Under the pieces are notes generated by a model, which saw only the letters and a list, made by a program, of their open reading frames with translations, was not told where the DNA came from and did not search any database. Below are positions 11,605 through 52,542 of a stretch of 64,000 bases of DNA, piece by piece. A program made the position numbers and the translations under genes. The stretch comes from an uncultured Candidatus Saccharibacteria bacterium (GTDB lineage: Bacteria > Patescibacteriota > Minisyncoccia > Phycocordibacterales > PALSA-1337), in assembly GCA_964529025.1 (NCBI GenBank), contig CAZGUZ010000003.1:22368-86367 (forward strand). The letters run 5' to 3'. Each line of letters begins with the position of its first letter. Positions within the stretch are counted from its first letter, which is position 1.

Positions 11605-11616
11605 TCTATTTATTAT

Positions 11617-11934
11617 ATGTTTAGCCGACGCGCACGAGTAACAACGTCGCTCTTTACTGAAGCATTGGCTTCAAGGAACGTTGTTTCTACGCCGTATGCA
11701 ACACTACGAGTACTTCCCCATGGGAGTACTCGTTGTGCTATTGTGGTATCTAAAAAGGTGGCAAAAAGCGCTGTAGTTCGCAATAGAATTAAGCGACAGG
11801 TTTCCCATATACTTAAAAAAATAAAGCTTCCTACTGCAATTATTCTGGTTTTCATTAAACCTTCATATATTGGTGCGGATAGAAATCAGATTATTACAAC
11901 TTTTACCGAGATAGTGCCTAAAATTAAGGTTTAG
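11617..11934 (+). CDS. rnpA: RNase P protein component
   Basis: 105 aa, basic, with the RNR motif region VVRNRIKRQV, directly after rpmH. Confidence 0.85.
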   Translation: MFSRRARVTTSLFTEALASRNVVSTPYATLRVLPHGSTRCAIVVSKKVAKSAVVRNRIKRQVSHILKKIKLPTAIILVFIKPSYIGADRNQIITTFTEIVPKIKV

Positions 11935-11948
11935 CGTACAATACACAC

Positions 11949-14161: not shown

Positions 14162-15470
14162 GATTCTTTTTATAGAACTGAGCTGTTATGTCGTTTTCGT
14201 ATCCCTCACCAAAAGTTGTTTTAAGTGCTGTCCCTGTTGTTCTTGCGAGCATTCCATTGATAAGCCCTTGGAGCTTAGGTAGATTAGCTGTTGCAAAAAC
14301 TGTTGGTTGAGCTCCTTGTGTAACAACACGAACTGCATACTTTTCATACCGCTTTTCAAGATCAGCGGTGTCGCGAGCAAAGTCAGCCAAACTTGTAATT
14401 GCTTGTCGCCTGTCGTGTACTGCCTTACTCCCTTCTACATCATTCTGTTCAGCCATACTACTAAAAGCGGTATCATAAGGGGCGGTAATCTTGGCTTTTA
14501 TCTCGGGTATTTTTAAGTTTCGGTACCATATGTTTCTGTCGTCAAAAATAGCATCATTTGGATTCCATGGGGTATTTGAATACTCAATATATTCGGGTAC
14601 CACAACAACCTTGAGTGTGTCGTAGTAATCACTAAATCTTTCTATAACAACACTTTCACTTTTTGCTAAAATGAATTTTCTTTGAGGTTCTTTAAGTTTT
14701 TCTTGTATCTTTTTAATACCCTCATCGTCTTCTGGGTCACTCAGTCTGTATGCAGCTGCTTCTTCCTTAATTTTATCCACCTGGTTTTTATATGTTGCAG
14801 ATACATCGTCAAGACCCTCGCTCGCTTTTTCATTGTCTTCCGCTTGCTGAATAGCAGCTTTTTGAAGGTTTTGAATTCTTTTTTCTTCATTCTTAAGGAG
14901 TTGATCGAGTGTCAGAGGATCAAAAACATTATTTTTATCAACTCCAATAGGTGACAGGGGTTCCTGGGCAAGCTCAGTGATTTTGGGATCAATTGTTTGA
15001 AGGAATAAGAAAGAGCCCAGGGTCATAAAAAGACCAATAACTGCATTTTTAATAGTTTCTTTTGCTTCTGACTTCCCTGTAAATGCCTCAGTTGTCATGT
15101 ACTGAACACCTCCATACATAATCATTACAACAGCCAAGATGGATGCTAATGCCAAAAGAAGTCGGTAAGTATAGCCAAGAATTGCATAAAGGTTTACTTT
15201 CTTTACATAACCATCTTCACAGGTAATACCCTCTGTTACTGTTCCTTCTGGTCCATTGACACAAGGGAGTGGCTCAAGGAGTGTGTATTCTCGGCGCTTT
15301 GCATCGCCCGAAACAACATTGTTTGGATTTGATGCAACAGGAGTTTGTGCAGGTGTTGGCGTTGGTGTTTGGGCAAATGCTTCTGAAGTAAATAGAGAAT
15401 AATCACTACCAAGTGTGATGGCTGCAAAAAATATACAAGCAACAATGTGTGATTTAAAAGCTGGTTTCAT
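14112..15470 (-). CDS. Signal peptide + TrbC/VirB2-like two-helix pilin-type domain fused to a roughly 280-aa coiled-coil/charged C-terminal region
   Basis: Signal peptide, PTPTP linker and a Cys pair precede two hydrophobic helices separated by a short loop (LLLALASILAVVMIMYGGVQYM ... AVIGLFMTLGSFLFLQTI). That is the topology of conjugative pilin-like proteins. The gene lies inside the VirB4 cluster. Confidence 0.4.
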   Translation of the reverse strand: MKPAFKSHIVACIFFAAITLGSDYSLFTSEAFAQTPTPTPAQTPVASNPNNVVSGDAKRREYTLLEPLPCVNGPEGTVTEGITCEDGYVKKVNLYAILGYTYRLLLALASILAVVMIMYGGVQYMTTEAFTGKSEAKETIKNAVIGLFMTLGSFLFLQTIDPKITELAQEPLSPIGVDKNNVFDPLTLDQLLKNEEKRIQNLQKAAIQQAEDNEKASEGLDDVSATYKNQVDKIKEEAAAYRLSDPEDDEGIKKIQEKLKEPQRKFILAKSESVVIERFSDYYDTLKVVVVPEYIEYSNTPWNPNDAIFDDRNIWYRNLKIPEIKAKITAPYDTAFSSMAEQNDVEGSKAVHDRRQAITSLADFARDTADLEKRYEKYAVRVVTQGAQPTVFATANLPKLQGLINGMLARTTGTALKTTFGEGYENDITAQFYKKNLDLYRQRLENIKATYK

Positions 15471-16527
15471 TGGAGTTTTGAGCTGTATAGTTAATGGTAA
15501 ATTGTGAGAATACTCTTTGAAGAATATATTCAGGGTTCGTAATTACAAGCCCAACAAGCGCCGTTCCGTTTTCTTTCTGTTCAATACGAAGGGTTGTGGT
15601 ATCTTTCCCTGCTAGCTCGGGGCGCTCTCTATTGTTGAGGCTCCATTCATAGCTAATGTCTGAGTTTTTTGGTCGAGAGAATGAAAACGGTATAACTTTG
15701 TAAGTAACTTCGCTTGATGTTAAAGAAAAGTCTGATGTTACTGCTTTATTATACAATACCCCATACAAAGGACTTTCTTCGTATATCAATACTTCAGGTT
15801 GTGTTGCTTCAATCTCGATAACGGCCTCACCTTGAATTGTTTGGTCTTGTGAAATTACTACGACTTTAATTGAAAAAGGTCGCTGTATAGGTGATCCTGC
15901 AACAGTCAGGGTTTGTTTTCCATAACCAGACTCTGATCCAAGAACAGTTGAATTTTTTGTCCATGTGTAAATAAGGCTCGCTGGGTCAATGCGTTCCCCT
16001 GCACTTGTATACATATGAGGAATTGCAACAAATGTTATGTTTCCTTGGTAAGGAAAACTAGCTTTTCCTTTGTAGAATGGTGGTGTGATACCATCCGAAT
16101 ACCATGTAAGATCAACATCTCCTGGGCGAAGGGTTATTGATCTCTGGTATTTTGTGTTTTCTATGGTCGAAACCGAAACAGTAAGGACATTTGTTTTACC
16201 ACTTGTAGGAGCAATTCCTTCATAAGTTACTTTACCTATCCCACTCGCTACAACTTTGCCATCAATGGTCCAAACAATAGTTGCACCAGAAAGGTTAGTG
16301 TTAAAGCTTTGTATTTTTGCTGTGTAACTCTTATTCGGTCGAACTATTGTTGGGTTAATGGTGAGCTCAAGAGGGTTAAGATTGCCCGAACCAGGTGCAA
16401 TTTGAGCCTGTACTGTAGTTTGTTCAAAAAAACCACCTACATTAATGAATGGAATGAGCAATAAAACCCCTGCAATCGTGAGAATTGCCGGAATTTTCTT
16501 AAGGTGTGAAAAAGTAACACCAAACAT
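15454..16527 (-). CDS. N-terminally anchored secreted protein (beta-rich, Ig-like?), hypothetical
   Basis: N-terminal TM/signal, 357 aa, co-oriented with and overlapping its neighbours in the operon. Confidence 0.5.
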   Translation of the reverse strand: MFGVTFSHLKKIPAILTIAGVLLLIPFINVGGFFEQTTVQAQIAPGSGNLNPLELTINPTIVRPNKSYTAKIQSFNTNLSGATIVWTIDGKVVASGIGKVTYEGIAPTSGKTNVLTVSVSTIENTKYQRSITLRPGDVDLTWYSDGITPPFYKGKASFPYQGNITFVAIPHMYTSAGERIDPASLIYTWTKNSTVLGSESGYGKQTLTVAGSPIQRPFSIKVVVISQDQTIQGEAVIEIEATQPEVLIYEESPLYGVLYNKAVTSDFSLTSSEVTYKVIPFSFSRPKNSDISYEWSLNNRERPELAGKDTTTLRIEQKENGTALVGLVITNPEYILQRVFSQFTINYTAQNSNETSF

Positions 16528-16575
16528 ATATATAGTATAGCACTTGAGACTGCGAACATTTATCCCCTTGAGTCG

Positions 16576-17136
16576 CTATGGTCGGGGTGATTGAGGTCGG
16601 CGAATCCCCCCGCTATTGAGTGGTGGTGGTCGCAAATTACCATTATTAATACCAGATGCTCCGGCACCTACCATACTCGCAGTGCCCGCACCAGTTGCAA
16701 CATTTGCTGTGCGAGCAACATTAGCCGCCCCCTCGGCAGAATTGGCAATTTTACTTGCCCCAGCCTTTTTGCCAAATACATTAACAAGTTTAACTGCTTT
16801 ACCTGCTTTACCAGCAAAAGAATTAGGATCACTATCTGCCTTTACTGTTAACCACGACAAGATTACAGATATTGTCCAAATAGGTATGGTATCTGCAATC
16901 GGAATCATTTCGCCCGTTGCTGTTGCTAAAGAATTGGCTAATTGTTTTGCGGTTACTAAGGATACCCCTCTCCACCATAGATAACCGTTCAAGACAAAAG
17001 TCATTATTAAAGAAATAATGCGATTGACTGCTATACCACTGCCAAAGAAAATATTGAGCAAAATTTGCGCAATATCAACAATGAGTGCAAACACTAAGAT
17101 TGCAAACCACTCACCTTTCGAAATTGGTTTATGCAT
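16576..17136 (-). CDS. Small polytopic membrane protein (3 TM) with Gly/Ala-rich tail, hypothetical T4SS-associated
   Basis: 186 aa, hydrophobic helices, and a stop 2 nt before the VirB4 start. Confidence 0.5.
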   Translation of the reverse strand: MHKPISKGEWFAILVFALIVDIAQILLNIFFGSGIAVNRIISLIMTFVLNGYLWWRGVSLVTAKQLANSLATATGEMIPIADTIPIWTISVILSWLTVKADSDPNSFAGKAGKAVKLVNVFGKKAGASKIANSAEGAANVARTANVATGAGTASMVGAGASGINNGNLRPPPLNSGGIRRPQSPRP

Positions 17137-17137
17137 A

Positions 17138-18955
17138 CTAATTGCCCGCAGCCTTCAATTCTTCTTTTGCCTTTTTAATTGCAAGTACTGCAGATGGATT
17201 GGTGGTAATAATTTGGTCTTCAGTATACGATGCAATTACTTTAATTGCCACATGCTTCATTCCTACGAAGAATATTCCCTCTCCTACATCTGATTCAAGC
17301 AAAAGATACTTTTCTTCATCGGTAAGATTGAATGTTTGCTGAACCGTATCAATTGACGACGGGGATTGCTTAAGAAGAATCTGAATTGATGAGTTGGTAA
17401 TGATAGGCAAACCATACGGAGATTTAAGGAAGTCTTCTACGTCTTGAGTAATTGTTGCTAGACCAAGATAGTATTTTCGACCACGCTTTGCCAAACCAAG
17501 AAGGAATGAAGCTGTATCCTCGGATTTCATCATCCACCAAGCCTCGTCAATAACAAGGAGTCTCTTGCGGAGTTCTCGGCGAATTGCATTCCAAATATAG
17601 TGAGTAACAATGTACATTGCTACAGGCTTGAGCTCATCTTCCATGTCGCGCAAAGAAAACACGACAAACTTTTTATTAATATCTACGTTTGTTGGGCGGT
17701 TAATAAAGCCTGACCATGTTCCACGAGTGTATTTTGTGAGTCTTTGTACTAAAGAGTCTCCCCCTTCCATTCCGGCAAGAACAAGCTCAAAGTCTGACAT
17801 GAGGGGCGGTTCTACACTTCTGAAATCAGAATCAGCCGTAATATCCTTAAGGGCATACGTTTCGGTAATTGCTCTATCAATGATCGAATCTTCTTCTTGA
17901 GAAAGTCCACCAAGCATGATGCGGAAAAGCCCCACAAGGTTAACGATATGTGAGCGCAAAACGTCAGAAGATGCTTCGTCTTCGCGTGGTACGGGTAGGT
18001 CAAATGGGTTAATGTGGTGCTCTGAAGTAAGAGAAATATTAAAATATTTGCCCCCTGTTGCTTCGGCCATGTACTCGTATTCTCGTTCCGGGTCAATAAC
18101 AATTACCTCGGTATCAAACATGAGGGTTCGCAAAATTTCGAGTTTTGTTGCATATGATTTACCTGAACCGGCTTTAGCAAAGGTTACCGAGTTATAGTTT
18201 TCAAGCAAGAAGCGATCAAACAATACAAGCGAAGAGTTGTGGCGGTTAATTCCATACAAAATACCCTTGTCAGATGTAAGGTCAAAAGAAACAAAAGGAA
18301 AGAGACTCGAAAGAGGCGAAGAATTGAGCTTTGAGTGCACATTAAGCTCGTCGTTTGCTGCTGGTAAAACACTGCGATACCCTGCTTCTTGTTGGAATAG
18401 TGCTGGCTTAAGATAAATAAGCTTAGATTCGAGGAGTGACTTTACTTCGGATTCAACCTTATCAAGTTCCTGTGGAGAATCAGCAAAAATTGTAATGTAT
18501 ACTCCAACATCAAAAAGCTTTTCTTGAGCCTGAAGAAGATTGTCTCGAAGACTTTCAAGGTTTTGATATGCGGCATCAAGCTCGGGGTCACGAACAAGAC
18601 CCTTTTCTTCGCGAATATTGATTTGGCTTTGTACTTCAGCCACCTTTTTTTGGAATTGCCGCAAAATCTTTGATGTATCAAGGGGATGAACGTAGATAGA
18701 AATATTAAAAACCTTATCAAGGTTAATAATTGGAGCAAACCAGCTATCAGAAAGGTAGCGGGGATATGAAATTACGTAAAAAGTTCGGGCTATCTTTTCA
18801 CCAAGGTTAAGCTCCTTGGGGCTAATTTTAAGGGCAGAAGGAGCAATAACATCGCGAAGTTCGAGCATTCCAGCTTCATATACCTGCTCAGGCAATACTG
18901 ATGATATTTGAGGTTCTTTTGATTTTTTTGTAAAAAGTGAGTCGAAGATACCCAT
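17138..18955 (-). CDS. VirB4/TrbE/PrgJ-family type IV secretion ATPase (ATPase portion)
   Basis: CagE/TrbE/VirB region (FYVISYPRYLSDSWFAPI), Walker A FAKAGSGKSY and Walker B LLVIDEAWWMM (DEAW is typical of VirB4); 605 aa. Confidence 0.85.
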   Translation of the reverse strand: MGIFDSLFTKKSKEPQISSVLPEQVYEAGMLELRDVIAPSALKISPKELNLGEKIARTFYVISYPRYLSDSWFAPIINLDKVFNISIYVHPLDTSKILRQFQKKVAEVQSQINIREEKGLVRDPELDAAYQNLESLRDNLLQAQEKLFDVGVYITIFADSPQELDKVESEVKSLLESKLIYLKPALFQQEAGYRSVLPAANDELNVHSKLNSSPLSSLFPFVSFDLTSDKGILYGINRHNSSLVLFDRFLLENYNSVTFAKAGSGKSYATKLEILRTLMFDTEVIVIDPEREYEYMAEATGGKYFNISLTSEHHINPFDLPVPREDEASSDVLRSHIVNLVGLFRIMLGGLSQEEDSIIDRAITETYALKDITADSDFRSVEPPLMSDFELVLAGMEGGDSLVQRLTKYTRGTWSGFINRPTNVDINKKFVVFSLRDMEDELKPVAMYIVTHYIWNAIRRELRKRLLVIDEAWWMMKSEDTASFLLGLAKRGRKYYLGLATITQDVEDFLKSPYGLPIITNSSIQILLKQSPSSIDTVQQTFNLTDEEKYLLLESDVGEGIFFVGMKHVAIKVIASYTEDQIITTNPSAVLAIKKAKEELKAAGN

Positions 18956-18956
18956 A

Positions 18957-19589
18957 TTAGTTTGTTTTGATAGGCTTCTCAGTATCTCCAGGATTGAATA
19001 TTCTATAGAACAATTCTACCACCTCTTCGGTGCCAAGCGATGCAACACGAATTCCACAGCGTGTAAGCCCCTGCTCTACTACGGATACTCGCTGTTCTAA
19101 CTGGCTTTTATGTTCTTCAAACTCTGCTGTATTCATTGACTTAATCTTTTTCGGAGCAGCAAGAAGCCCAACAAGGCCTTTTCCTTGAGTCTGAATAATT
19201 GCAGGACTATAAGGAACAACAACAAAGAAACCTTTTGTCATGATATTTGAGGCTTCTACGAAGGTTTTGATAAATTCAATATATTCGCGAGTTTGAATTT
19301 TCATGAGTTCAGTACCCTGTTCTTTGTAACGATCCTCAAGAAGTCCGAGGTATGGCCTAATATCAAGCTCTTTTGATTGAATAAAAAACTGTATTGAGAA
19401 ATCAAGAGAGTTAATGAGATTTTGAAACTGAAAAATAATAGAGTTTTGCTCATCAGTTGATTTAAGAGCAAAGTTCAAAGAAGAAGCCATGATAATAGCC
19501 CGCATTGAGCCATCTTTAAGAATGACGATTCCATCACGAATCTCTTGAATAGGTACAAAATCTTGGGTTGTTTTTGATAATTCAGCCAT
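18957..19589 (-). CDS. VirB4-family N-terminal domain encoded as a separate 210-aa ORF (split VirB4 or frameshift)
   Basis: FVPIQEIRDGIVILKDGSMRAIIMASSLNFALKSTDEQNSIIFQFQNLINSL resembles the N-termini of Gram-positive VirB4 homologues (PrgJ/TcpF type). Its stop TAA is 1 nt from the ATG of the ATPase ORF in a different frame. 210 + 605 aa adds up to the normal VirB4 length. Confidence 0.45.
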   Translation of the reverse strand: MAELSKTTQDFVPIQEIRDGIVILKDGSMRAIIMASSLNFALKSTDEQNSIIFQFQNLINSLDFSIQFFIQSKELDIRPYLGLLEDRYKEQGTELMKIQTREYIEFIKTFVEASNIMTKGFFVVVPYSPAIIQTQGKGLVGLLAAPKKIKSMNTAEFEEHKSQLEQRVSVVEQGLTRCGIRVASLGTEEVVELFYRIFNPGDTEKPIKTN

Positions 19590-20026
19590 TATTTTTGATT
19601 CATGTTTGAATAAATACTCTCTTTAATATCCAGACTCCATGTCATATCTTTAAGTTTGCTATTAGAAATCTTTGGAACCAGTAGCTGGGCAGCTTCGGCA
19701 GCTTCGGGATTTTTTACCATTGCTTCGGGGTTGCGAGGATTCTTTTTCCAAAGATAGAGCTTTGGTGACATATAGTATTTTACCGCAGACTCGAGAATAA
19801 AGATAAAAGGCTTGTTGTTTATGCGATAAAAAGCTAGTACGAGTGAAAAAACAAGAACTGGAGCCATAATAATAACGAGTATGGCAAAAGGGAGTAATCC
19901 TTCGAGTCGAGTATAGATTAAAAATGACAAACCAGCCCCTCCGGCAAGATAAATAAATTGCTTAAGAGTGAGGGGGCCAAAGATTTTGTCTTCAACGTCA
20001 ATAAATTGAGGAACTTGAAAACGCAT
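19589..20026 (-). CDS. PrgI/VirB3-like small two-TM T4SS protein
   Basis: VPQFIDVEDKIFGPLTLKQFIYLAGGAGLSFLIY matches the PrgI-family N-terminal pattern (VPxxL..IK.K..FGLT.RQL) and is followed by two TM helices. It lies immediately upstream of VirB4, as PrgI does for PrgJ. Confidence 0.55.
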   Translation of the reverse strand: MRFQVPQFIDVEDKIFGPLTLKQFIYLAGGAGLSFLIYTRLEGLLPFAILVIIMAPVLVFSLVLAFYRINNKPFIFILESAVKYYMSPKLYLWKKNPRNPEAMVKNPEAAEAAQLLVPKISNSKLKDMTWSLDIKESIYSNMNQK

Positions 20027-20074
20027 ACATATAGTATACCACCAACTATTACGGTCGGTGGTATAACTAGTTCA

Positions 20075-20866
20075 CTATTCTTCTGTGTAAAGCTTTTTGA
20101 GGAAAGCTGGTTTGGTATCGCCTAATTCTATCGGTTCCCTGTATGGATCAGTACTACTTGGGCGGCTTTTTGGTGGAGTCTGTTTAAGAAGGTTTGCTAT
20201 ATCGGTTTGTGGCTGTGTTTGAGGTTGGGGTTGAGGTTTTTGCTCAGTTTCTTTGCGCTCTGCACCTGAATTGACTGGAATCTTATTTGTTGGTGTATAA
20301 TCCATAGTTTTTTGCTGTGTCTGTATGGTTATTGGTTCAGTTGAGCTAATTACGGTAGTTGATAGGGTGTCGTTTTCTTCTATTGCTCGTAAGAGCTCAT
20401 TGCGCACTTCGGGGTGTTCATGTTCTGGAATATGATCGTGGTCTTCTGAGCTATTGTTTACCCCTTTTATCCTAATTGCATCACCCTCGCCTACTATGTA
20501 TTCATGCGGATCAGCGTTTTGGGTAGCCTCTTCGTTTACGTATTCATCTTTCGAAGAGTCTCTTAAAGCATCGCGAACGGCTTCAAATACTATAGAATCA
20601 ATGTCTTTGCCAAGCTCAAGAGCTTGCGAGTGTGGTATGCGCACGTTTGCTTCGAGTCTCTCTACAAATTCATCAGCTTTGGTGAGTCCAGCAAGAGCAA
20701 AAGCTACTTCTTGAATAAGGGTATCAATTTGATCAATATGAAGATCGTTTTTTTCTCCAAGCATTGCCGCTGCATGGGTAAGTTCGGGCGAACCAAGAGC
20801 AGCCTGAATATGCTCTGGTAAGTTGTCGTATACTCGCTCAATGTCTTGTTGGGTAAAATTCTTCAT
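20075..20866 (-). CDS. Acidic cytoplasmic protein with PQ-repeat tail (QKPQPQPQTQPQT), hypothetical T4SS-associated
   Basis: 263 aa with no TM, co-oriented between the VirB6-like and PrgI-like genes. Confidence 0.45.
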   Translation of the reverse strand: MKNFTQQDIERVYDNLPEHIQAALGSPELTHAAAMLGEKNDLHIDQIDTLIQEVAFALAGLTKADEFVERLEANVRIPHSQALELGKDIDSIVFEAVRDALRDSSKDEYVNEEATQNADPHEYIVGEGDAIRIKGVNNSSEDHDHIPEHEHPEVRNELLRAIEENDTLSTTVISSTEPITIQTQQKTMDYTPTNKIPVNSGAERKETEQKPQPQPQTQPQTDIANLLKQTPPKSRPSSTDPYREPIELGDTKPAFLKKLYTEE

Positions 20867-20869
20867 GGT

Positions 20870-22933
20870 TTATAAGTTATCTCGCTCGAGTTTCGCTAGG
20901 TTCTGAGCAGCCACTTTGTAGTCGTCACGCAATTTTAGGAGCTTTGCTTCTTCTGATGATGTTATACCGTTCGAATCTCGCTTGCGTTTTTCAAGCTCAG
21001 CTATTTCCTTTTTAAGATCAGCAACCGCTTCTTTTGCATCAGCTAGATCGAGTTGACGCTGCTTCTTTGCAAGCTCTTTTGCAGCTTTTGCTTCGGCGGA
21101 ATCAAATTTATCAATAAATCTTCCAATGAATGGAATGTCTTTATGCTTGTCAGCAAAATTTCGAAGAAATGTATTTCGATGAACGTCTGCAACGTTTGAT
21201 TGACGCTCAATTTTCTTTTCTGCAATTTCTTTGTCTTTTGCGTCGAGTTCTGTTTCGGCAGTATCCAGGGCAATTTTTGCGGCGTCTTCAATACCAACTG
21301 CACTATCATATCTAAGTTTTGTATCATTGAGCTCTCTGTCAACGGCGTCGAATATATTTTGCTCTGCTCTTTGGCGATTTTGATCCCCAGCTGCACGTGC
21401 AGCATTAACCTTTTTACGTGCCTCCTCCCTTTTCTTCTCCAGGTCTTTTAGTTTTGATTTGAGACTCGATGAGTTTATTCTTGCTTCAGTTAGCGCTGTG
21501 CGAGCAGGCTCAACATTATTTATTCTATGAGCATCTCTATCCTCCATAAGCTTTTTTACTGCTGCCTCATCAAAACCTAGGCTTTCTGCAAATGCTACAC
21601 GAGTCTCTGCACGTTTCTTAGCAGCTTCTTCATAAGGCTTTGCTACACCCTTGATTGCATTTGTTGCAATTCTACCGAGCAAAGGATTGTTCTGAGAAAA
21701 TCTGTTAAGAGTTCCTGACTCAGCGAGTGCCGACGCTCCGCGCCCAACCGATTGGCGAAATATAAAACTATTTGTGCCTCGCATACCGCTCTTAATCTTT
21801 CCCTGACCCCATTTTGAAAAGTCCTCGAACCACTTATTTGCCATTGCACCACCGTAACCTCCTGATTTCTGTGATATTCCAAGAGCTGCACCAAGAACAA
21901 TGATAATGAGCGCGTAATTAAAGAAAGCTGCTATTGTTCCTGAACCTCCAATTGCAAAGTTTGCAAAATCACCCACTGTTTTATTAACAGCACCACTACC
22001 CTGAAAGATGTTGGCAAATTGAGTATTCTGACCAAATGACATTGAGTCTACAATCTTTAGTCCTACATACAAAACCATGAGCATGGTTGGTCCAGCAAAA
22101 AGTTGCTTGTAGAAAGTGTCTTCAAGTTGTTTGCGCGCATCTGCAGTTTGTGGAAGTACAATCGCAATAAAATAGAGTGGAGAAAATGCCATACAAAGAA
22201 GCAGGATTACAAGTCGATACACCATGGTAATTGCTGCCCCTAAGAATAAGAAGCCAATCATAGTCATAACTGTCACTGCTCCCATGCCTGTAACAAGGGC
22301 TTTTGCGGTAAAGCTTTCATTTCCTGCAAGGCTATTACCTACACTTGTCAAAGTCGCTAAGCTGAAGAAAGACTGAATTTTTACTTTCTGCATGATGGTA
22401 TCGCTGATGCTGTAATCATCGTACGGCTTAATTGCATCATAGAAAGTGAGTGCAACAAGGTTACTTCCATCAATCATGACTCGTGTCGCAAATAGACTAA
22501 AGTTGATAAAGAGTCCGCAGATAATTACGTTCTTAATTGTATTAGACAGATCCTTTCCTGTTAGCCCAAGAATAGTTCGAATCGAGGCGAATAACATAAC
22601 ACCAATAAGAGCAATGTTCGAGAGGTCGCGAATTGATCGCCACATGATTCCAATACTTGGCGTATTGTTAACCAAATCAGCCATATTGAGAGTTGCAGAT
22701 ATAGAAACATCAAGAAGTCCTGCTGTTATTTTTACCCACCATCCAGCAAGTACAAGTAGTACGTGTGAAAGCGCGGCAATAAGTGTGCCTTGGAGAAAGT
22801 CACCAGAAAGAGTTCCGAGTATTGCATTCGTCCAATCCATAGCGTGTGCTTGGTTTGGCAACAATGACACAAGCACCCCGAGGAGGGTTGCTCCCAACAG
22901 TATTATTCTTTTGTTGTTGGTTAGTTTTCTCAT
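20870..22933 (-). CDS. VirB6/TrbL-like polytopic membrane protein with about 250-aa C-terminal coiled-coil extension
   Basis: Signal/TM N-terminus, six or more hydrophobic helices in the first 400 aa, then a long K/E/R/A-rich coiled coil. Position and topology match VirB6-like channel subunits of Gram-positive T4SSs. No sequence-motif proof. Confidence 0.5.
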   Translation of the reverse strand: MRKLTNNKRIILLGATLLGVLVSLLPNQAHAMDWTNAILGTLSGDFLQGTLIAALSHVLLVLAGWWVKITAGLLDVSISATLNMADLVNNTPSIGIMWRSIRDLSNIALIGVMLFASIRTILGLTGKDLSNTIKNVIICGLFINFSLFATRVMIDGSNLVALTFYDAIKPYDDYSISDTIMQKVKIQSFFSLATLTSVGNSLAGNESFTAKALVTGMGAVTVMTMIGFLFLGAAITMVYRLVILLLCMAFSPLYFIAIVLPQTADARKQLEDTFYKQLFAGPTMLMVLYVGLKIVDSMSFGQNTQFANIFQGSGAVNKTVGDFANFAIGGSGTIAAFFNYALIIIVLGAALGISQKSGGYGGAMANKWFEDFSKWGQGKIKSGMRGTNSFIFRQSVGRGASALAESGTLNRFSQNNPLLGRIATNAIKGVAKPYEEAAKKRAETRVAFAESLGFDEAAVKKLMEDRDAHRINNVEPARTALTEARINSSSLKSKLKDLEKKREEARKKVNAARAAGDQNRQRAEQNIFDAVDRELNDTKLRYDSAVGIEDAAKIALDTAETELDAKDKEIAEKKIERQSNVADVHRNTFLRNFADKHKDIPFIGRFIDKFDSAEAKAAKELAKKQRQLDLADAKEAVADLKKEIAELEKRKRDSNGITSSEEAKLLKLRDDYKVAAQNLAKLERDNL

Positions 22934-22939
22934 TGTCTA

Positions 22940-24601
22940 TTATGGGAAGTATTTGCAGGCATTAGCTTCGTCACGCGCCCTTCGTTCAAGGTCGCGCAAG
23001 GTTCCGTTGTTGCTATCTGTATAACTATTATACTCGTCTGTCGCTTCATTTGCTCTAACTTTGTAAAGACTAATGCTTGGAAGTAAGTTGTTATACTCTG
23101 TTGCTGCTTTTTGTATATCACCCACCTGACTTGCACTTTCCGCTGTTGCTTTGATTCGAGACAGGTCAGAGATGTTTCTTTCAATAGATTGAACATCAAG
23201 GGTGAGGGTTGTAATTTTAGGAACCAATTGCCCTTCTATAATTGCATCCATATCTTTAATTTTATCAAGACCTCGAGAAATTGCATTTTGTGTGAGCCTC
23301 CGTGAGTTGCCTTGAAGTGCTGTATTGTAACAAGTCTTTACATCAACAAATTTAATTCTAAGTGCCGAGATATACTTAAGACTTTCATTTTTTGCATCAC
23401 GGTATTTCCAAGCATCAGTAGTGTAAGTATCGATAGTATCAAGAATGTTACTCTTTGAAGCTTGTAGTTGCTCATAGTTGAATGCTTGCTCTTGCTGGAG
23501 CTGTTGTGCAATTCCCTCTGTATCACTTGCCCCTGTTCCACTCACGCCCTTAAGTCCACCCACAAGAACCTTTTGTACTAATTGTGCAAAGAGGGCGTTA
23601 ATAATTTCATTAAATTCGTCTGCAAGTTCGAGTTCGCGAACTGGTGAGCCAAGAGATGTCTCAAGTGTTCCTGCAATTACAGAACCTGGAGTTTGAGTTT
23701 CGCACTTTTTACGAGTTGTTTCATTCGAAGCAGATTCATAGTAGCCCTGAAGCTGCGAGACGTTGTTTGTAAATTCTTGTGAATCTGATTGTCCGCTATT
23801 AGCGAGCTCACTATTACGTGCAGCAAGTTTATTTGCTTCAGATTCAGTAATAACTCGCTCATCTTTACAGGTCTTAAATGAAAGGAATCCTTTACCTTGA
23901 GAAAGCTCCTGATTTGCTCGGGCATTTGCATTAGCAATTCGTAGAGTTGCTTCGGTATCGGCAGTGACATATGCACCGATAAAGTTATTTTGAGGCTCAG
24001 TGGTCATCGAAACGAAAGCTGGCATTTTACCCTGTCTAAAGTCTCCAGCTGTGAAACCGTTAATCGAAGCCCCTTGAGCAGCGTTTGTTGTATTGTTAAT
24101 TATATCCGTTAGCGTACAGGCTGCTTTACCTTTCTGCTGGAATGGTCGATATCTAAAAGCTAGTTGCAGACGAATATCGATAGAAAAGTTACTACAGAGA
24201 AATGCTAGGTCACTGCCCAATATCATTCCGCCGAGAATTTCATCGCCAATGTCGGTAAAGAACTGTCCAGGATCACTAAGGAATGCTGGGCTACCCTCAA
24301 AACCATTATTGATCCAGTTTACAACACTTGATGTAATACCACGCAAAATTTGTTTAGCAATACCATATGCAATTGCGTCAAAAGTAAGTTCCTTTATCTG
24401 AAGACTCGTCATAAGTCCGGTTTGGATTGATGAGTTGGCAGCTGTAATAGTATTTTGCGCAATGTTTCCTGCATCGACTACGGGTATTGCGTGAGCAGTT
24501 TTTGGAGCAATTAAAAGCGTTGAAAGTGGAAAAAATATTTGCACACTTAAAGTACTTACGATGAGAATTGTTGAGACAAATTGTTTTAAAATAGTTCTCA
24601 T
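22940..24601 (-). CDS. Secreted protein (signal peptide, Asn/Thr-rich, coiled-coil segments), hypothetical T4SS-associated
   Basis: 553 aa, N-terminal signal ending ..TAHA, no enzymatic motif recognised, and a stop 7 nt before the VirB6-like start. Confidence 0.5.
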   Translation of the reverse strand: MRTILKQFVSTILIVSTLSVQIFFPLSTLLIAPKTAHAIPVVDAGNIAQNTITAANSSIQTGLMTSLQIKELTFDAIAYGIAKQILRGITSSVVNWINNGFEGSPAFLSDPGQFFTDIGDEILGGMILGSDLAFLCSNFSIDIRLQLAFRYRPFQQKGKAACTLTDIINNTTNAAQGASINGFTAGDFRQGKMPAFVSMTTEPQNNFIGAYVTADTEATLRIANANARANQELSQGKGFLSFKTCKDERVITESEANKLAARNSELANSGQSDSQEFTNNVSQLQGYYESASNETTRKKCETQTPGSVIAGTLETSLGSPVRELELADEFNEIINALFAQLVQKVLVGGLKGVSGTGASDTEGIAQQLQQEQAFNYEQLQASKSNILDTIDTYTTDAWKYRDAKNESLKYISALRIKFVDVKTCYNTALQGNSRRLTQNAISRGLDKIKDMDAIIEGQLVPKITTLTLDVQSIERNISDLSRIKATAESASQVGDIQKAATEYNNLLPSISLYKVRANEATDEYNSYTDSNNGTLRDLERRARDEANACKYFP

Positions 24602-24602
24602 A

Positions 24603-25580
24603 TTATTCTAGTACTAAGCCAAAAAAGTAACCGCCTTCTGTTGGTTCAAAGCTAATTCCCGCAGCATGAAATTGTCTTTTAATTACAAGGTTACTTTCTG
24701 TAAAGTTTTCAAATGCTTTCGGGTATCTGCCAATCGCTTGTAAAGCAATAAGAGGGTTTGTAAAGACATTTTTAAATGCTTCAGAAATAAAGAGGAGCTC
24801 ACTTACGGTATTAATCATAAGAATATGATTGGCGCCAAGTTTTTGTGGAACAGGAGTTTTGAGAAGGGCTTCAATAATTTTTTTGTAGCTTGCAATGAGT
24901 GGATCGAGCTCATTAAGAATTGCGGGATTTTCTTTATCGAGCGCATCTTTAACAATGAGTGTTTCATTACGCACCTTAGTTTCATTTGCTAAAAATATTC
25001 CACCAACAGCATTTGTATAGTTGCGAAGTGTTAAGGTATCGTTCGCTTCGATTCCGCTAATAACGATAATATCTTTTAATGTATATGTCTTTGGAATCTC
25101 TGTATACGCACTCGAAGTAATAAGTTCATTGATTACTGCGGCGCGGCTATCGGCATCATCTATGAGCCCTGTTTGTTTAAGCTCGATATACTTAGCGAAA
25201 ATATCTCGACCAAACTTTTCTGTTTGATTGAGTTTTGCATACTCTTCTTGTGCTGTTACAACTTTAGGACCTGCTCCGGCAATGCTTGGGTTGCGGCCCT
25301 GCTCAACTTCTACTCCATCAAGGATTCCATCACCATCACTATCTTTTGTTTGCGGATTTGTATTCCAAATTACCTCTTCCCAATCTTTAAGACCGTCGCT
25401 GTCCGAATCAATAAGTTGTATGTCTTCAACAAGTTGCTTATTTGCAGGATTCGCTACTATTTCTGGTGTATATACACCAACATTTTTTGGAGAAGTAATT
25501 TCTGCAAAGAAAAAAACGCCACCAACAAGGATTAGTGACCCTGCGATAAGAATTAAATTGTTTTTTCCAGGGTAGATCAC
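24603..25580 (-). CDS. N-terminally anchored protein with thrombospondin-type-3-like Ca-binding repeats (DSDSDGLKDWEE / DSDGDGILDGVE), first gene of the T4SS-like operon
   Basis: N-terminal TM and DxDxDG Ca-binding loops; the stop overlaps the start of the next gene by 1 nt. Confidence 0.5.
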   Translation of the reverse strand: MIYPGKNNLILIAGSLILVGGVFFFAEITSPKNVGVYTPEIVANPANKQLVEDIQLIDSDSDGLKDWEEVIWNTNPQTKDSDGDGILDGVEVEQGRNPSIAGAGPKVVTAQEEYAKLNQTEKFGRDIFAKYIELKQTGLIDDADSRAAVINELITSSAYTEIPKTYTLKDIIVISGIEANDTLTLRNYTNAVGGIFLANETKVRNETLIVKDALDKENPAILNELDPLIASYKKIIEALLKTPVPQKLGANHILMINTVSELLFISEAFKNVFTNPLIALQAIGRYPKAFENFTESNLVIKRQFHAAGISFEPTEGGYFFGLVLE

Positions 25581-36368: not shown

Positions 36369-37382
36369 ATGTCGCACAATCTAGAGGCACTCAAAAGACA
36401 GTTTCTTGAATATGTAGAAATTGAAAAGGGGCGCAGCCTCAGTACAGTTATGAATTATGAGCACTATTTATCACGTTTTATCGACTTTTCAGGGGCAAAA
36501 AACGTAGAAGATATAACAGATTCAGGTATACGAGAGTACCGTTTATGGCTCAACCGCCAAGAAGCAAGGACATTGCGTACTGGAATCAAAGAAACACTTA
36601 AGCGACGCACTCAAAACTATTATCTTATTGCTTTGCGTTCTTTTCTTAAGTATTTGGCTCGCCAAGGCATAAAAGCTGTGCCTCCAGAGCGCATTGAGCT
36701 CGCAAAAGTGCCCGAACGCTCGCTTGATCTGATTTCTAACGAAGATCTTGAAGCTTTGATGAAAGCGCCAGGAACATCAACATTGAAAGGATTACGCGAT
36801 ACTGCCCTTTTAGAGCTATTATTCTCAACGGGTTTGCGCGTATCTGAGCTTTGTGGCCTACATAGAGATATAAATTTGTCACGCGATGAATTCCCTGTTC
36901 GAGGAAAAGGCGAAAAAGTTCGAGTAGTCTTTCTTTCTGATGCAGCAAAGAGGTCAGTAAGGCTGTATTTAGATGCTCGAAAAGATATGGACGATGCTCT
37001 GTTTGTGCAATTGCCCGTACATGAAAGAAGAAAGAATAGTAATGGGGCAAAGAATGGAGTAAAGAGTGGAGCAAAGACACAAAAATCTTCAGTAAAATCA
37101 CGGAATTCGGGATCAATGCGACTTACTCCACGGTCCGTCGAAAGAATAATCAAATTTTATGCAATTAAAGCCGGAATATCAAAAAAAGTGACGCCTCACG
37201 TTATTCGTCACTCTTTTGCTACTGATTTATTGAGAAATGGCGCAGATATTCGCTCAGTACAAATGCTTTTGGGCCATGCAAATATCGGAACCACACAGAT
37301 TTATACCCATATTACTGACAGCGAACTCCGAAATGTTCACAAGAAGTTTCACAGTAAGAGCCGAGAAAATAACTCAAAATAG
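36369..37382 (+). CDS. Tyrosine recombinase XerC/XerD-like with a roughly 45-aa Lys/Ser-rich insertion
   Basis: Catalytic R...HxxR...Y set (RHSFATDLL, LLGHANIGTTQIYTHI) and the insertion KNSNGAKNGVKSGAKTQKSSVKSRNSGS. Confidence 0.85.
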   Translation: MSHNLEALKRQFLEYVEIEKGRSLSTVMNYEHYLSRFIDFSGAKNVEDITDSGIREYRLWLNRQEARTLRTGIKETLKRRTQNYYLIALRSFLKYLARQGIKAVPPERIELAKVPERSLDLISNEDLEALMKAPGTSTLKGLRDTALLELLFSTGLRVSELCGLHRDINLSRDEFPVRGKGEKVRVVFLSDAAKRSVRLYLDARKDMDDALFVQLPVHERRKNSNGAKNGVKSGAKTQKSSVKSRNSGSMRLTPRSVERIIKFYAIKAGISKKVTPHVIRHSFATDLLRNGADIRSVQMLLGHANIGTTQIYTHITDSELRNVHKKFHSKSRENNSK

Positions 37383-45288: not shown

Positions 45289-45996
45289 ATGCGTCTTCAC
45301 CGTTTCTATATTCCCGAACCTTTACCTCAAGCTCCTGTACTTGTTGTTAATTATCCTGAGCATTTACACCAATGGAAAAAAGTTTTTCGTTTTATTCCAG
45401 GGGATACCATCATTATTTTTGATGGATCGGGCTTTGAGTGTACAGCACAGTTCTCTTATTTAGATTCAAAAGAGGCTCGTTTAGTTCTTCAGGATAGACA
45501 AAGCCCTGACAGGGAAGCTGCGCGAGAAATCCATATGTATGTTGCAATAACCAAAAAAGATACTTTTGAGGTTATTGCTCAAAAGGCAACCGAGCTTGGA
45601 GTTGCACGAATAATTCCAGTCATTAGTGCGCGCTCAGAAAAGAAAGACATTAATATGTTGCGTTTTAAAAAGATCGTTATTGAAGCAACAGAACAATCTG
45701 GGCGAACAGTTGTTCCGCGAATTTATGAGCCAATTGAATTCGAGAAAATCTTTGATGGTATAACTGCTCCATGTATTGTTTGGGAGCCTCGGGGTGTGCC
45801 TTTCGTTGAGCAAAATGATGCTTCATTGTCACAAAAAGTACTATGTATGGCAATTGGCCCAGAAGGTGGCTGGACACCTGATGAGCTTGAAATGTTCCAA
45901 GAGAAAGGAGCGCTTGTGCGCTCCTCAGGAAAAACTGTATTGCGAACCGAAACGGCTGCAATTGCTTTTCTTTCTCTACTTATTCTCGCTCAATAG
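45289..45996 (+). CDS. rsmE: 16S rRNA (uracil1498-N3)-methyltransferase RsmE
   Basis: MRLHRFYIP N-terminus (PUA-like), and a SPOUT-knot C-terminus including GPEGGWT. Confidence 0.85.
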   Translation: MRLHRFYIPEPLPQAPVLVVNYPEHLHQWKKVFRFIPGDTIIIFDGSGFECTAQFSYLDSKEARLVLQDRQSPDREAAREIHMYVAITKKDTFEVIAQKATELGVARIIPVISARSEKKDINMLRFKKIVIEATEQSGRTVVPRIYEPIEFEKIFDGITAPCIVWEPRGVPFVEQNDASLSQKVLCMAIGPEGGWTPDELEMFQEKGALVRSSGKTVLRTETAAIAFLSLLILAQ

Positions 45997-49082: not shown

Positions 49083-50237
49083 CTATTCTACCTCAGAATC
49101 ACTGTCTGCACCCTTTGTTTGAGAGTCACCTTCTGCGTGAATATCGATTTTCCAACCTGTAAGCTTTGCTGCAAGGCGAACATTTTGGCCACCTTTTCCA
49201 ATTGCAAGTGACTGTTGATCCTGATCCACAACGACTGTTGCTTTGTTCTCTTCTTTATCAAGCTTAATTGATACGATTTTTGCTGGGGAAAGGGCTTCCT
49301 CGATGAATTTTGCTGGATCAGCATTCCATTCAATAATATCGATCTTTTCGCCACCGAGTTCACTCATAACTGTTGAAACTCGTACGCCGCGCTGTCCAAT
49401 AAGTGAACCTGTTGGATCAATATGGCTATCTGTTGTAGCAACAGCGATTTTTGATCGTGAACCAGCTTCGCGAGCAATTGCCTTGATTTCTACGATACCC
49501 TGAGCAATTTCTGGAGCTTCAACTTCGAAGAGCTTATGAAGGAATTGCGGGTGTGATCGCGAAAGACGAAGCATAATACCCTTAGGACTTTCCTCAACAG
49601 AGTAAAGATATGCCCGAATTCGTTCCCCTTGCTTGTAGCGCTCACCAGGAATTTGTTCTTCATAAGGAAGAATTCCTACTGCACGGCCCAAATCAACGAA
49701 TATATTGCCACGCTCTGTTCTTTGTACTGTTCCCGATATAATATCGCCTTCTTTTTCGCCAAATTCGCTCAAAACTGATGTTTTTTCAGCTTCACGGATC
49801 TTCTGAATGATTACTTGCTTAGCTGTTTGAGCAGCAATTCGGCCATAATTATCCTTTTGCTCAAGAGGGAATACGATTTCATCGTCAACATTGGCATCTT
49901 TCTTAATAATGCGAGCGTCTTCAATAAGAATATGATGTTCTGGGTTAAATCGAACCTTAATATCCTCTTCGGCTGTTGTGCTGAGGTCTTGCTCGGCTTC
50001 TTCATCGCCTTCCATAATGACCTTTGAGCGGTCAACGACGATTTTTACTTGGTAAAACTCAGTTTTTCCTGAATCAAGGTCAAAAACACAGCGAACAATC
50101 TGGCCTTTTTTGCCAAATTCTTTTTTGTACGCTGTTGCAAGGGCCATTTGAATAGCCTCGAGCATTTTTTCACGGGGAATACCGCGCTCCTCTTGGAGTT
50201 GATCAAGAACTGAATTTATTACTTTAAGGTCAAACAT
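49083..50237 (-). CDS. nusA: Transcription termination/antitermination factor NusA
   Basis: N-terminal RNAP-binding domain, S1 and two KH domains (GxxG loops); 384 aa. Confidence 0.9.
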   Translation of the reverse strand: MFDLKVINSVLDQLQEERGIPREKMLEAIQMALATAYKKEFGKKGQIVRCVFDLDSGKTEFYQVKIVVDRSKVIMEGDEEAEQDLSTTAEEDIKVRFNPEHHILIEDARIIKKDANVDDEIVFPLEQKDNYGRIAAQTAKQVIIQKIREAEKTSVLSEFGEKEGDIISGTVQRTERGNIFVDLGRAVGILPYEEQIPGERYKQGERIRAYLYSVEESPKGIMLRLSRSHPQFLHKLFEVEAPEIAQGIVEIKAIAREAGSRSKIAVATTDSHIDPTGSLIGQRGVRVSTVMSELGGEKIDIIEWNADPAKFIEEALSPAKIVSIKLDKEENKATVVVDQDQQSLAIGKGGQNVRLAAKLTGWKIDIHAEGDSQTKGADSDSEVE

Positions 50238-50370
50238 ATTTAGTTGTGAGTTATGCTCTTGCCACTATATGGCTTTGTTGAGCTATTTTGTAAATTTTCC
50301 TAAAAAATAAGCTCGCCGTTAAGCGAACCATTACGTAGTAGAGTATGTATCAAGAAGGGGGAGATGTCAA

Positions 50371-50680
50371 ATGCAATGTGGTGTGTATTTTGAGGGTGAC
50401 CATACTCGCTCTGTGCTCAGAGCGGTATTATATCTCGGGCGCCTACGCGCCCTCCGATAATTCCCCCTCAAAATACACACCACATTGCATGAGGTACACC
50501 CAACACTGCAAAGAGTCACTTTTGCCACCTACGCGCCCTCCGATAATTCCCCCTCAAAATACACACCACATTGCATGAGGTACACCCAACACTGCAAAGA
50601 GTCACTTTTGCCACCTACGCGCCCTCCGATAATTCCCCTACAAAATACACACCACATTGCAGGTACAGTGCTGTTGTGAG
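50371..50680. repeat. Composite repeat: a 26-bp inverted repeat (ATGCAATGTGGTGTGTATTTTGAGGG, 50371-50396) whose partner lies inside an 86-bp unit repeated about 2.65 times in tandem (copies starting 50442, 50528, 50614)
   Basis: Copies 1 and 2 are identical and copy 3 diverges at its end. Inner palindromes include CGCTCTG-TGCT-CAGAGCG (50406-50423) and GTTGTG-AGCA-CACAAC. Lies between the divergent nusA and pilB. Confidence 0.8.
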
Positions 50681-50790
50681 CACACAACAAGCACGGTCCA
50701 CCCAAAGCATAAGGCGATGTATTAGTTATACCCACTTTTATACTACTTTTGCTGAATTATCGCGGTATAATTAAGTAAATATTCCTCGCT

Positions 50791-52542
50791 ATGTTCATCG
50801 AAGATACCCAACTAAAAAAGTTCATTCTAGACTCGAACCTGGTCTCAAAGGCAGATTTGGATGCCGCTGCTAAAGAGGCAGAAAAAAAGAATGTAAGAAT
50901 TGGTGAAATTCTTGTAAACAACGGCAAAATTACCGAGGATAATCTTCGTCGAATGCAAGCGTATGTGCTCGGCATTCCTTTTGTTGACCTCAAGAATAAA
51001 AAGATTCCATTTGAAACACTTTCAATGATTCCTGAGCCTGTTGCTCGAAATCATAATATTGTGGCTTTTAAAAAGTCTGAAGACACTCTCGAAGTTGCAA
51101 TGCTCGATGTTGACGACTTGTCAGCAATTGATTTCGTAAAGAAAAAGGTTCACCTTAAAATTGTTGCGCGACTTACTGATACTGAGTCAGTTAAGAGTGC
51201 TATTGTTCAATACCAAAAGAGTCTTAAGGCTGAATTCGGCGACTTGATTCAGAAAGAAACTGCTTCACTTAAAATGATTGCTGAAAGTGAAGGGCAGGAA
51301 AATGTTTCTGGTGAAGACCTTAAGAAAATTGCAGAAGATCTTCCCGTGGTTCGCATTGTCGACACACTTCTTAAGCATGCAATTTTGCAAAATGCTTCGG
51401 ATATTCATATTGAACCAATGGAAGATCAGCTTTTGGTTCGCTATCGTATTGACGGCTTGCTTCGCGATGCCATGGTTTTACCCCGCAGTGCTGAGCCATC
51501 GATTACTGCTCGTATTAAAGTTTTGTCGAATCTTAAACTCGATGAAAAGCGTTTGCCACAGGACGGTCGTTTTAAGGTGGACATGACGAATGAAAAGGTT
51601 TCATTCCGTGTGTCGATTTTGCCAACATACTATGGTGAAAAAACTGTAATGCGTTTGCTCCGCGAAAACGTTTCTGGTTTTACACTCGAAGGTTTAGGTT
51701 TTCATGGGGAAGGGTTAGAAAGACTCCACCACGCTACAACTCTTTCAACGGGAATGATTCTTACGACAGGTCCAACTGGATCAGGAAAGACAACAACCCT
51801 CTATACTGTGCTCGATATTCTTAATACTCCCGATGTAAACATTTCTACCATCGAAGACCCTGTTGAATATCAAATGAAGCGAATTAATCAAACGCAAGTA
51901 AAACCTGAAATTGGTTTCTCTTTTGCAGTTGGATTGCGAACGCTTGTGCGTCAGGATCCTGACATTATTATGGTAGGAGAAATTCGCGACAATGAAACCG
52001 CTTCTCTTGCTGTTAACGCTGCTCTTACGGGTCACCTTGTGCTTTCTACTTTGCACACAAACTCTGCTGCGGGTGCTATTCCTCGTTTGATGGATATGAA
52101 GATTGAGCCATTTTTGCTCGTGTCAACACTTAACATTGTTGTTGCTCAAAGACTTGTGCGAAAGCTCACTGATGCAAAAGAAAAGTATTTTCTTTCTAAA
52201 GCTGAATTATCACAGCTAGAAAAAACCATTGATCTTGAATCGGTGCTCAAGACTCTTAAAGAAGAAAAAATTGTAGAGAAAAATGCCACATGGGAAAAGA
52301 TTCCATTCTGGAAACCAGCCAAAAAAGAAGGTAGTGATGGATTCTCGGGACGAATTGGAATTCACGAAGTGCTTAAAATGAGTCCTACAATCAAAGATCT
52401 CATTATGAAGGGTGCAACGACTGCCGAAATCGAAGCTCAAGCAAAAAAAGAAGGAATGATAACAATGTTTGAAGATGGAATATTCCAAGCAGTGCAAGGT
52501 TTAACAACGATTGAAGAAGTTCTCCGCGTAATATCAGAATAA
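50791..52542 (+). CDS. pilB: Type IV pilus assembly ATPase PilB
   Basis: N-terminal GspII/T2SSE_N domain, Walker A GPTGSGKTTTL, GspE box LRQDPDIIMVGEIRD; 583 aa. Confidence 0.9.
   Translation: MFIEDTQLKKFILDSNLVSKADLDAAAKEAEKKNVRIGEILVNNGKITEDNLRRMQAYVLGIPFVDLKNKKIPFETLSMIPEPVARNHNIVAFKKSEDTLEVAMLDVDDLSAIDFVKKKVHLKIVARLTDTESVKSAIVQYQKSLKAEFGDLIQKETASLKMIAESEGQENVSGEDLKKIAEDLPVVRIVDTLLKHAILQNASDIHIEPMEDQLLVRYRIDGLLRDAMVLPRSAEPSITARIKVLSNLKLDEKRLPQDGRFKVDMTNEKVSFRVSILPTYYGEKTVMRLLRENVSGFTLEGLGFHGEGLERLHHATTLSTGMILTTGPTGSGKTTTLYTVLDILNTPDVNISTIEDPVEYQMKRINQTQVKPEIGFSFAVGLRTLVRQDPDIIMVGEIRDNETASLAVNAALTGHLVLSTLHTNSAAGAIPRLMDMKIEPFLLVSTLNIVVAQRLVRKLTDAKEKYFLSKAELSQLEKTIDLESVLKTLKEEKIVEKNATWEKIPFWKPAKKEGSDGFSGRIGIHEVLKMSPTIKDLIMKGATTAEIEAQAKKEGMITMFEDGIFQAVQGLTTIEEVLRVISE

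Follow-up and report, generated by a model that had tools for sequence, protein, structure and literature searches.

What is an 86-bp tandem repeat, faced by an inverted copy of part of its own unit, doing between the divergent nusA and pilB genes of a patescibacterial chromosome? To our knowledge, very little has been described of the non-coding elements of CPR/Patescibacteria, whose genomes are tiny and hold few mobile elements. The neighborhood adds to the question, as the type IV pilus is thought to be used by CPR episymbionts for attachment and DNA uptake. A sequence-only reading of this locus had listed as candidate roles a structured 5' leader or sRNA, a recombination or phase-variation switch for the pilus operon, and a MITE remnant. 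We examined the repeat within the whole 64-kb stretch of DNA that was analysed (64,000 nt; hereafter the window, to which coordinates refer unless another contig is named), among related strains and in other species.

Locus and host

The window comes from the chromosome of an uncultured bacterium of the Patescibacteria (Paceibacteria/Parcubacteria group): taking one genome per species, the best relatives of its NusA are 76-79% identical and are all MAGs of that group. The repeat occupies a 553-bp intergenic spacer between divergent genes, nusA on the minus strand to its left (49083-50237) and a PilB-type ATPase gene on the plus strand to its right (50791-52542). Downstream (3') of pilB come pilC, a gene for a pilus-associated protein and a prepilin-like gene.

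Elsewhere the window bears dnaA/dnaN, a T4SS-like cluster and housekeeping genes. (i) The dnaN and dnaA genes are on the minus strand (8572-11948), and ~600 bp without coding sequence separate them from yidC; the region probably contains the replication origin and is ~40 kb off the repeat. (ii) A minus-strand cluster (12758-25580) encodes a VirB4/TraG-like ATPase, a PrgI-family protein, a T4SS-pilin-like protein and, besides these, several large proteins without a Pfam match, and has the look of a type IV secretion or conjugation-like apparatus. (iii) The sole recombinase of the window is an Xer-like tyrosine recombinase with an N-terminal SAM-like domain (36369-37382, plus strand), 13 kb from the repeat, and no link between the two was found. 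Among the gene products of the 64-kb window there is no transposase, RAYT-like gene, Cas domain or Nop-domain protein.

Tandem array and inverted arms

Tandem Repeats Finder places the array at 50442-50661 on the plus strand (period 86, 98% matches, score 426), by far the strongest tandem array of the 64-kb window. Its 2.6 copies, an assembly figure since the unitigs built from short reads of the same samples end within the repeat, agree with the ~2.65 copies given by the sequence-only reading, as does the identity of the first two: copies 1 (50442-50527) and 2 (50528-50613) do not differ, while copy 3 agrees over 48 nt (50614-50661) and is divergent afterwards. Each unit is made of the 3' half of P3 (a stem of the module described below), the junction TCCGATAAT, a right arm and a 37-nt filler. 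The three right arms (R1, 50462-50490; R2, 50548-50576; R3, 50634-50661; plus strand), one in each unit, are complementary to a left arm at 50371-50399, as had been claimed. The left arm is the reverse complement of R1 and R2 over 29 nt with one mismatch (26 nt exact), and is 89% complementary to R3. The 26-mer of the arm occurs exactly four times in the window, against zero expected from 100 shuffles.

The arms have few echoes elsewhere. A scan of 185,579 species genomes gave no match to the 21-nt arm core, and short-word BLAST with the spacer as query returned nothing from 80 related nusA loci or from elsewhere in the window. The right-arm core shares 23-24 identical bases with a phage dUTPase-like gene in human-associated assemblies (L001 6687-6712, L002 1115-1140 and L003 4596-4621), and the few arm-core matches in JGI metagenomes and IMG/VR all lie within one phage dUTPase-like gene; being one independent match in very large collections, this was judged to be chance. 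Exact look-ups of ORFs crossing the repeat gave nothing on record. A 29-codon ORF starting at the first base of the arm was rejected as coding, being frameshifted in two strains (L100 and L102).

A Y-shaped three-way-junction module

The left arm, an 18-nt palindrome (position corrected to 50407-50424), the hairpin GGGCGC-CTAC-GCGCCC (50437-50452), which the sequence-only reading had missed, and the first right arm are not separate features; together they are one module of ~120 nt (module 1, 50371-50490, plus strand), to which fold, covariation, RNAalifold and a covariance model all point. Its 120 nt run in the order left arm, CCATACT, palindrome, GTATTATATCTC, GGGCGC hairpin, TCCGATAAT and first right arm, and make up a complete Y-shaped three-way-junction hairpin. 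The closing stem P1 pairs 50371-50399 with 50462-50490, its 5' strand (the left arm) abutting the nusA -35 hexamer; P2 (50402-50428) includes the palindrome and a TGCT loop, and P3 (50432-50458) includes the GGGCGC hairpin. The inner palindrome and the GTTGTG-AGCA-CACAAC hairpin noted earlier are thus real structure, but belong to modules 1 and 2, respectively, rather than standing on their own.

Seen against this module, the 86-bp repeat is a strain-variable re-duplication of its 3' part (half of P3, junction, right arm and filler). The pairing of one left arm with three right arms is there to be seen, but as a by-product of the re-duplicated 3' half. The tandem repeat itself behaves as a variable-number tandem repeat (VNTR).

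Folded as a single sequence, module 1 gives the three-way junction at -72.9 kcal/mol (z = -13.6), and five other family members each fold as the same Y on their own; the covariance model scores module 1 at 122-144 bits. Of 419 cells in 10 distinct strain variants, 97.4% are paired; 8 of the 42 pairs, six of them in the long stem and the other two in the palindrome, have changed on both sides. This covariation score was reached in none of 500 column shuffles, and sliding the pairing partners by 1-3 columns destroys the signal. When RNAalifold was applied to eight diverse members, including paralogues and copies from other species, 41 of 46 pairs held through double changes. Its consensus has a P1 of ~27 bp, a P2 of 4 bp, a bulge and 7 bp, a P3 of 3 bp, a UC/UCC loop and 6 bp, and junctions CC / URU / AAY. 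The layout common to the core is accordingly a 25-29-bp P1 enclosing two short hairpins, P2 with its UGCU loop and the GC-rich P3 with its small UC/UCC internal loop.

Rates of change were set against those of nusA in the same strains, where 44% of third-codon positions and 3% of first and second positions are variable. Among module 1 columns initially scored as unpaired, 1 of 36 is variable (Fisher p = 1e-7 versus nusA third-codon positions), and the core is therefore as constrained as positions that determine amino acids. In the paired class 24 of 84 columns vary, and the stem changes are mainly compensated pairs. A suspicion that the arms are hypervariable among near-identical strains was rejected: the strains differ by 7-27% at nusA third positions, so that the arms change more slowly than neutral sites do, and the core much more slowly still. 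By these comparisons, the module is under strong purifying selection on both its fold and its core sequence. The mismatches in module 1 are balanced between G-U and A-C (4 versus 6) and hence carry no RNA-strand signal; maintenance at the DNA level would fit too.

A second module on the minus strand

The covariance model of module 1 matched a more divergent strain (L096) on the opposite strand, and through this match a paralogue, module 2, was recognised. It lies on the minus strand next to the pilB promoter and repeats the layout of module 1, with an extended P2 (UGCU loop) and the P3 GGACAC-CTTC-GTGTCC, while its arms are of entirely different sequence. Complete copies are found in L089, L090, L092, L100-L102, L101, L104, L107 and L096. 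Their closing stem is less well kept than that of module 1 (85% paired) and is partly decayed in some strains, and their P3 covaries.

The window retains a remnant of module 2, the 5' half only (50662-50719, minus strand), detected as a partial covariance-model match (50631-50697, minus strand; model positions 29-92) and delimited by alignment with the complete copies, which places its 5' arm at ~50697-50719 and its P2, the GTTGTG-AGCA-CACAAC hairpin, at 50668-50694. The remnant is fused directly to right arm R3. Each module has its 5' arm facing the nearer promoter, and modules 1 and 2 converge on each other.

Variation among strains

The strain set consisted of the contigs of nine members of the 90%-identity NusA cluster, plus one PilB-derived contig. 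The spacer was recovered from 16 contigs with the element and two without. Third-codon divergence of nusA is 15% within lineage A, to which the window belongs, and ~26% between lineages A and B, and the strains compared are therefore not near-clones. Module 1 is present in the same orientation in all 16 element-bearing contigs; its right arm has decayed in L104 and L107.

Variation in copy number among strains, looked for as a check on the sequence-only reading, is indeed there, in counts that come from metagenome assemblies, which can collapse tandem repeats: 1, 2 or 3 right arms at the 86-bp period and 1, 2 or 4 at a period of 54 bp. In lineage A (86-bp period) the window has three right arms, L008 two, and L097/L099/L103, L100/L102 and L101 one; in lineage B (54-bp period) L091/L093 have one, L089/L092 two and L090 four. 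The more divergent L096 bears a related unit in the opposite orientation, with a tandem duplicate of its own at a period of ~38 nt. The same 3' part of the module has been duplicated in sister lineages by separate events, at periods of 54 and ~38 bp.

One member of the same NusA cluster (L105) has a spacer of 258 bp with both promoters and no module, an empty site. It and L008 both occur in GCA_013566075.1, which thus holds two strains of the lineage, one with the module and two right arms and one with the empty spacer. The divergent arrangement of nusA and pilB is often retained in species at 82% NusA identity or below, with spacers of 78-380 bp that show no similarity to the window spacer.

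Promoter context

Two predicted core promoters, back to back, enclose the modules. That of nusA (TTGACA-17-CATACT, minus strand, 50342-50370), with its -35 at 50365-50370 and -10 at 50342-50347, was found by promoter scan and is supported by conservation: both hexamers are kept in all strains, including the module-less L105, and the TTGACA is recognisable in many related species. For pilB, a predicted -10 region TCGCGGTATAAT (plus strand, 50760-50771) near the ATG is conserved in all strains, reading TCGGGGTATAAT in L105; in relatives, too, a TATAAT-like box is found near the pilB start codon. Every strain, L105 included, likewise keeps a box AGTTATACCCA (50724-50734) some 30 nt before the pilB -10, which may bind a regulator or form part of a second promoter of pilB.

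Lying between back-to-back promoters, as the conserved nusA -35/-10 and pilB -10 indicate, the repeat is unlikely to be the 5' leader that had been proposed for it. Modules 1 and 2 of the window have no U-run after P1, and with this and their position between divergent promoters they do not have the form of intrinsic terminators.

The nusA 5' leader does contain a structure of its own, outside the repeat: an attenuator-like hairpin with a U-run (50300-50329, minus strand), ~60-90 nt upstream of the nusA start in the window and closer to it in the short spacers of relatives. It is found in ~15 related species (at nusA-proximal spacer ends, L009-L085) with a covarying stem of GTTCGCC...GGCGAAC types. 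It looks like a conserved attenuator, possibly serving NusA autoregulation.

Relatives in other species

Covariance models of the module (model versions R2 and R3) found two copies in one other species (L042; 96.6 and 83.6 bits) and two diverged copies in another (L044), in each case within 7-9 kb. A further model alignment, A5, was left out, as it contained reverse-strand pseudo-hits. With filters off, no copy was found in the 64-kb window beyond the two modules of the spacer, and the models found none in the ~9-kb loci of 77 other relatives. An IMG/VR scan with the conserved P3 pattern gave 24 loci, none fitting the model, and a strict regex/stem search returned the known copies only. Against Rfam 15, only four tRNAs of the window reach the gathering threshold, and permissive scans of the spacer, L042, L089 and L096 gave chance-level matches only. 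On these searches, covering ~750 kb of related sequence, the module belongs to a small, undescribed family of 4-5 deep lineages, with diverged copies in two other Paceibacteria species.

The setting of these copies differs from that in the window. Those of L042 (L042a and L042b) bracket tig, one coming straight after the stop codon of a small ORF and the other straight after that of tig; A and T runs border their closing stems, and they have the features of an intrinsic terminator, a stable hairpin with a U-run 3' of a gene. In L039, the closest relative of L042 (89% NusA identity), the corresponding gene context around tig has ordinary GC-stem/T-run terminators on both sides. Their position 3' of stop codons, their A/T runs and the L039 terminators together argue that the module in L042 and L044 is a terminator or embedded in one, as far as sequence context can tell. 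In the tig-flanking pair, plain terminators at 6900-6940 and 8200-8250 of L039 stand against Y-shaped modules of 115-120 nt at 4072-4189 and 5181-5294 of L042, a clean comparison for how a module arises or inserts. A diverged module of L044 occupies the tig/rsmE convergent spacer, as in L042. In the window, tig and the convergent rsmE-like methyltransferase gene overlap by ~20 nt (45976-45996), leaving no spacer where L042 and L044 carry a module.

We note one peculiar hairpin besides the family: an 82-nt sequence beginning GGGAACTTCCGCGCGAGAGTTTTT lies inside a larger conserved block in two different Patescibacteria MAGs (L067 8743-8824 and L077 4172-4253), with a stem of 23-24 bp that is perfect in L067 and has one mismatch in L077.

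Interpretation

We hold, with moderate confidence, that the spacer is a cluster of a conserved structured element with a VNTR, which most likely acts as a folded single strand, probably RNA. The module would be a stable hairpin that ends, blocks or stabilises transcripts, and the two convergent modules would insulate the back-to-back nusA and pilB promoters from inward, divergent transcription. Array length most likely changes through replication slippage or unequal exchange around hairpin-prone sequence, the extra right arms being alternative but presumably dispensable pairing partners of the left arm. It is the relatives placed after stop codons with A/U runs, and the terminators at the matching positions of L039, that suggest a terminator-like RNA hairpin. 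Against this stands the window itself, where modules without a U-run are not canonical intrinsic terminators and there is no obvious transcript between the promoters.

A rather unlikely but substantial alternative is a non-autonomous mobile palindromic element of the REPIN, MITE or BOX kind, i.e. selfish DNA that spreads as a folded single strand by means of a transposase encoded elsewhere and lands in permissive spacers or terminator hairpins. The fold would then be kept for mobility, or by hairpin-templated repair and gene conversion, and the array would be functionless slippage. Copies at non-homologous loci in different species fit such mobility, as do the filled and empty sites (L105) and the module in L042 where L039 has a plain terminator; so do the two copies of opposite orientation in one spacer, the frequent indels and partial copies, the balance of G-U and A-C mismatches, and the precedent of BOX elements, which share terminal pairing and a variable tandem internal part (PMC3049150). 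The pattern of conservation is nonetheless the reverse of that in MITEs and REPINs, whose ends are conserved: here arms are unrelated and the core is kept, at the level of nusA first and second positions across ~26% synonymous divergence. Nor was a target-site duplication seen, a transposase or RAYT found in the 64 kb, another copy found in the window or in the ~9-kb loci of the 77 relatives, or the 21-nt arm core found among the 185,579 species genomes.

More ambitious, and in our view improbable, is that the Y module represents a new class of functional RNA or folded ssDNA in Patescibacteria, with a core bound by a specific factor, re-duplicated 3' arms that offer alternative closing helices in the nusA-pilB spacer, and an arm copy number that is thereby a heritable, strain-variable tuner of pilus or nusA expression. 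More doubtful still is a cis-regulatory or small RNA for the pilus operon or nusA, with arm copy number as a rheostat. Such a role would account for the strong selection on fold and core sequence, for the position next to both promoters in every module-bearing strain and for the three independent duplications of the 3' part at different periods. The P2-P3 junction moreover contains a -10-like box (TATTAT on the plus strand, TATAAT on the minus strand), and its GCGGTATTAT resembles the pilB GCGGTATAAT. The box, however, is not kept in module 2 or in the L042 and L044 copies, and the motif GCGGTATWAT is not enriched in the window. Further, both predicted core promoters have the module on their upstream side, related species in which nusA and pilB are arranged alike (78-380-bp spacers) do without it, its family members elsewhere flank tig and not pilus genes, and strains whose arm number ranges from 1 to 4 coexist without any other visible difference.

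The switch proposed earlier, an inverton whose 62-234-bp segment between inverted arms is flipped by a site-specific recombinase, has in its favour 26-29-bp inverted repeats around a short segment upstream of a pilus operon, one left arm facing several right arms, and arms kept identical, yet it is very improbable: all 16 assembled contigs with module 1 have the same orientation, the arms lack a dyad-symmetric core (their halves are not mutual reverse complements), no recombinase is adjacent (the only one being 13 kb away), recombination leaves the covariation that is also seen in the short inner hairpins unexplained, and 62 bp is very short for synapsis.

On any of these readings there is, beside a type IV pilus operon, a module that is supported by covariation, conserved like protein-coding positions and absent from Rfam. 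If it acts as RNA, it is a defined new motif with a covariance model usable for surveys; if it is selfish DNA, it persists in an unusual way, keeping its core while its arms are free to change. In metagenomes, the variable array could be used to tell strains of this lineage apart.

Comparison with known element classes

Several classes with repeated or paired units can be set aside. The array is no CRISPR, as had been stated: whole 86-bp units repeat, the first two are identical, and no Cas domain is encoded in the window; a tracrRNA reading was rejected along with it. TIGR arrays have units of ~36-40 nt with two 8-12-nt repeats, two 9-nt variable spacers and box C/D motifs, and they adjoin a Nop-domain Tas gene (PMC12045711). 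A TIGR-Tas array was likewise rejected here, with a period of 86 nt, no variable spacers and no Nop-domain protein in the window. Inspection by eye found no sigma-54 box, hammerhead core or box C/D motif.

The suggestion of a MITE remnant is only loosely supported. Relatives at other loci are MITE-like, but the terminal arms are unrelated between copies: instead of conserved terminal inverted repeats, the arms of module 1, module 2, L042a, L042b and L044 differ, only their innermost 5-8 bp being common to different copies, and the core is the conserved part. At the flanks of module 1, module 2 and L042a/b no target-site duplication was seen, one that later rearrangements could have erased. REPINs consist of two inverted arms in a hairpin of ~100 nt, are extragenic and have their hairpin preserved in evolution; the copies in a genome share arm sequences and number tens to hundreds. 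The module is like them in its inverted arms within a ~100-nt hairpin, its extragenic position and its preserved hairpin. It departs from them, and from REPs, in that arms are unrelated between copies, no RAYT-like gene is present within the 64 kb and no conserved GTAG-type 5' motif is seen. VNTRs of the MIRU type are tandem units of 50-100 bp in an intergenic spacer, with a copy number that varies among strains. The repeat matches them in unit size, in its place in a spacer and in strain-variable number, but its unit is a fragment of a larger conserved hairpin module and no free-standing minisatellite.

With RNA motifs of the Rfam type the module shares covarying stems, conserved junction and loop nucleotides, an architecture held across species and detectability by covariance model. 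It has no Rfam 15 match, however, and its near-perfect P1 of 25-29 bp is unusually long for a ligand- or protein-binding RNA.

The module is best filed among intergenic palindromic or structured elements, its closest analogues being the pneumococcal SPRITE and BOX elements. SPRITE elements are enriched at gene 3' ends (PMC3049150), and the L042 and L044 modules, each a long stem with a U-rich tail placed right behind a stop codon, resemble them in this. A SPRITE is nevertheless a simple 18-bp hairpin, versus a three-way junction with a conserved core, and the window copies are found between divergent promoters and have no U-run. BOX elements of Streptococcus pneumoniae have the form boxA-boxB(n)-boxC, in which the terminal parts pair and the internal part is tandem and strain-variable; they are intergenic, occur near competence or pilus-type genes and are predicted to fold if transcribed (PMC3049150). 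No resemblance to BOX in sequence was noticed, and the module differs from BOX in its CPR host, in an apparently low copy number per genome, in arms that are wholly different between copies, and in that its repeated part includes the 3' pairing arm, whereas BOX repeats a neutral internal box. The likeness is one of architecture: an intergenic, modular element near pilus-type genes that combines terminal pairing with a strain-variable tandem part.
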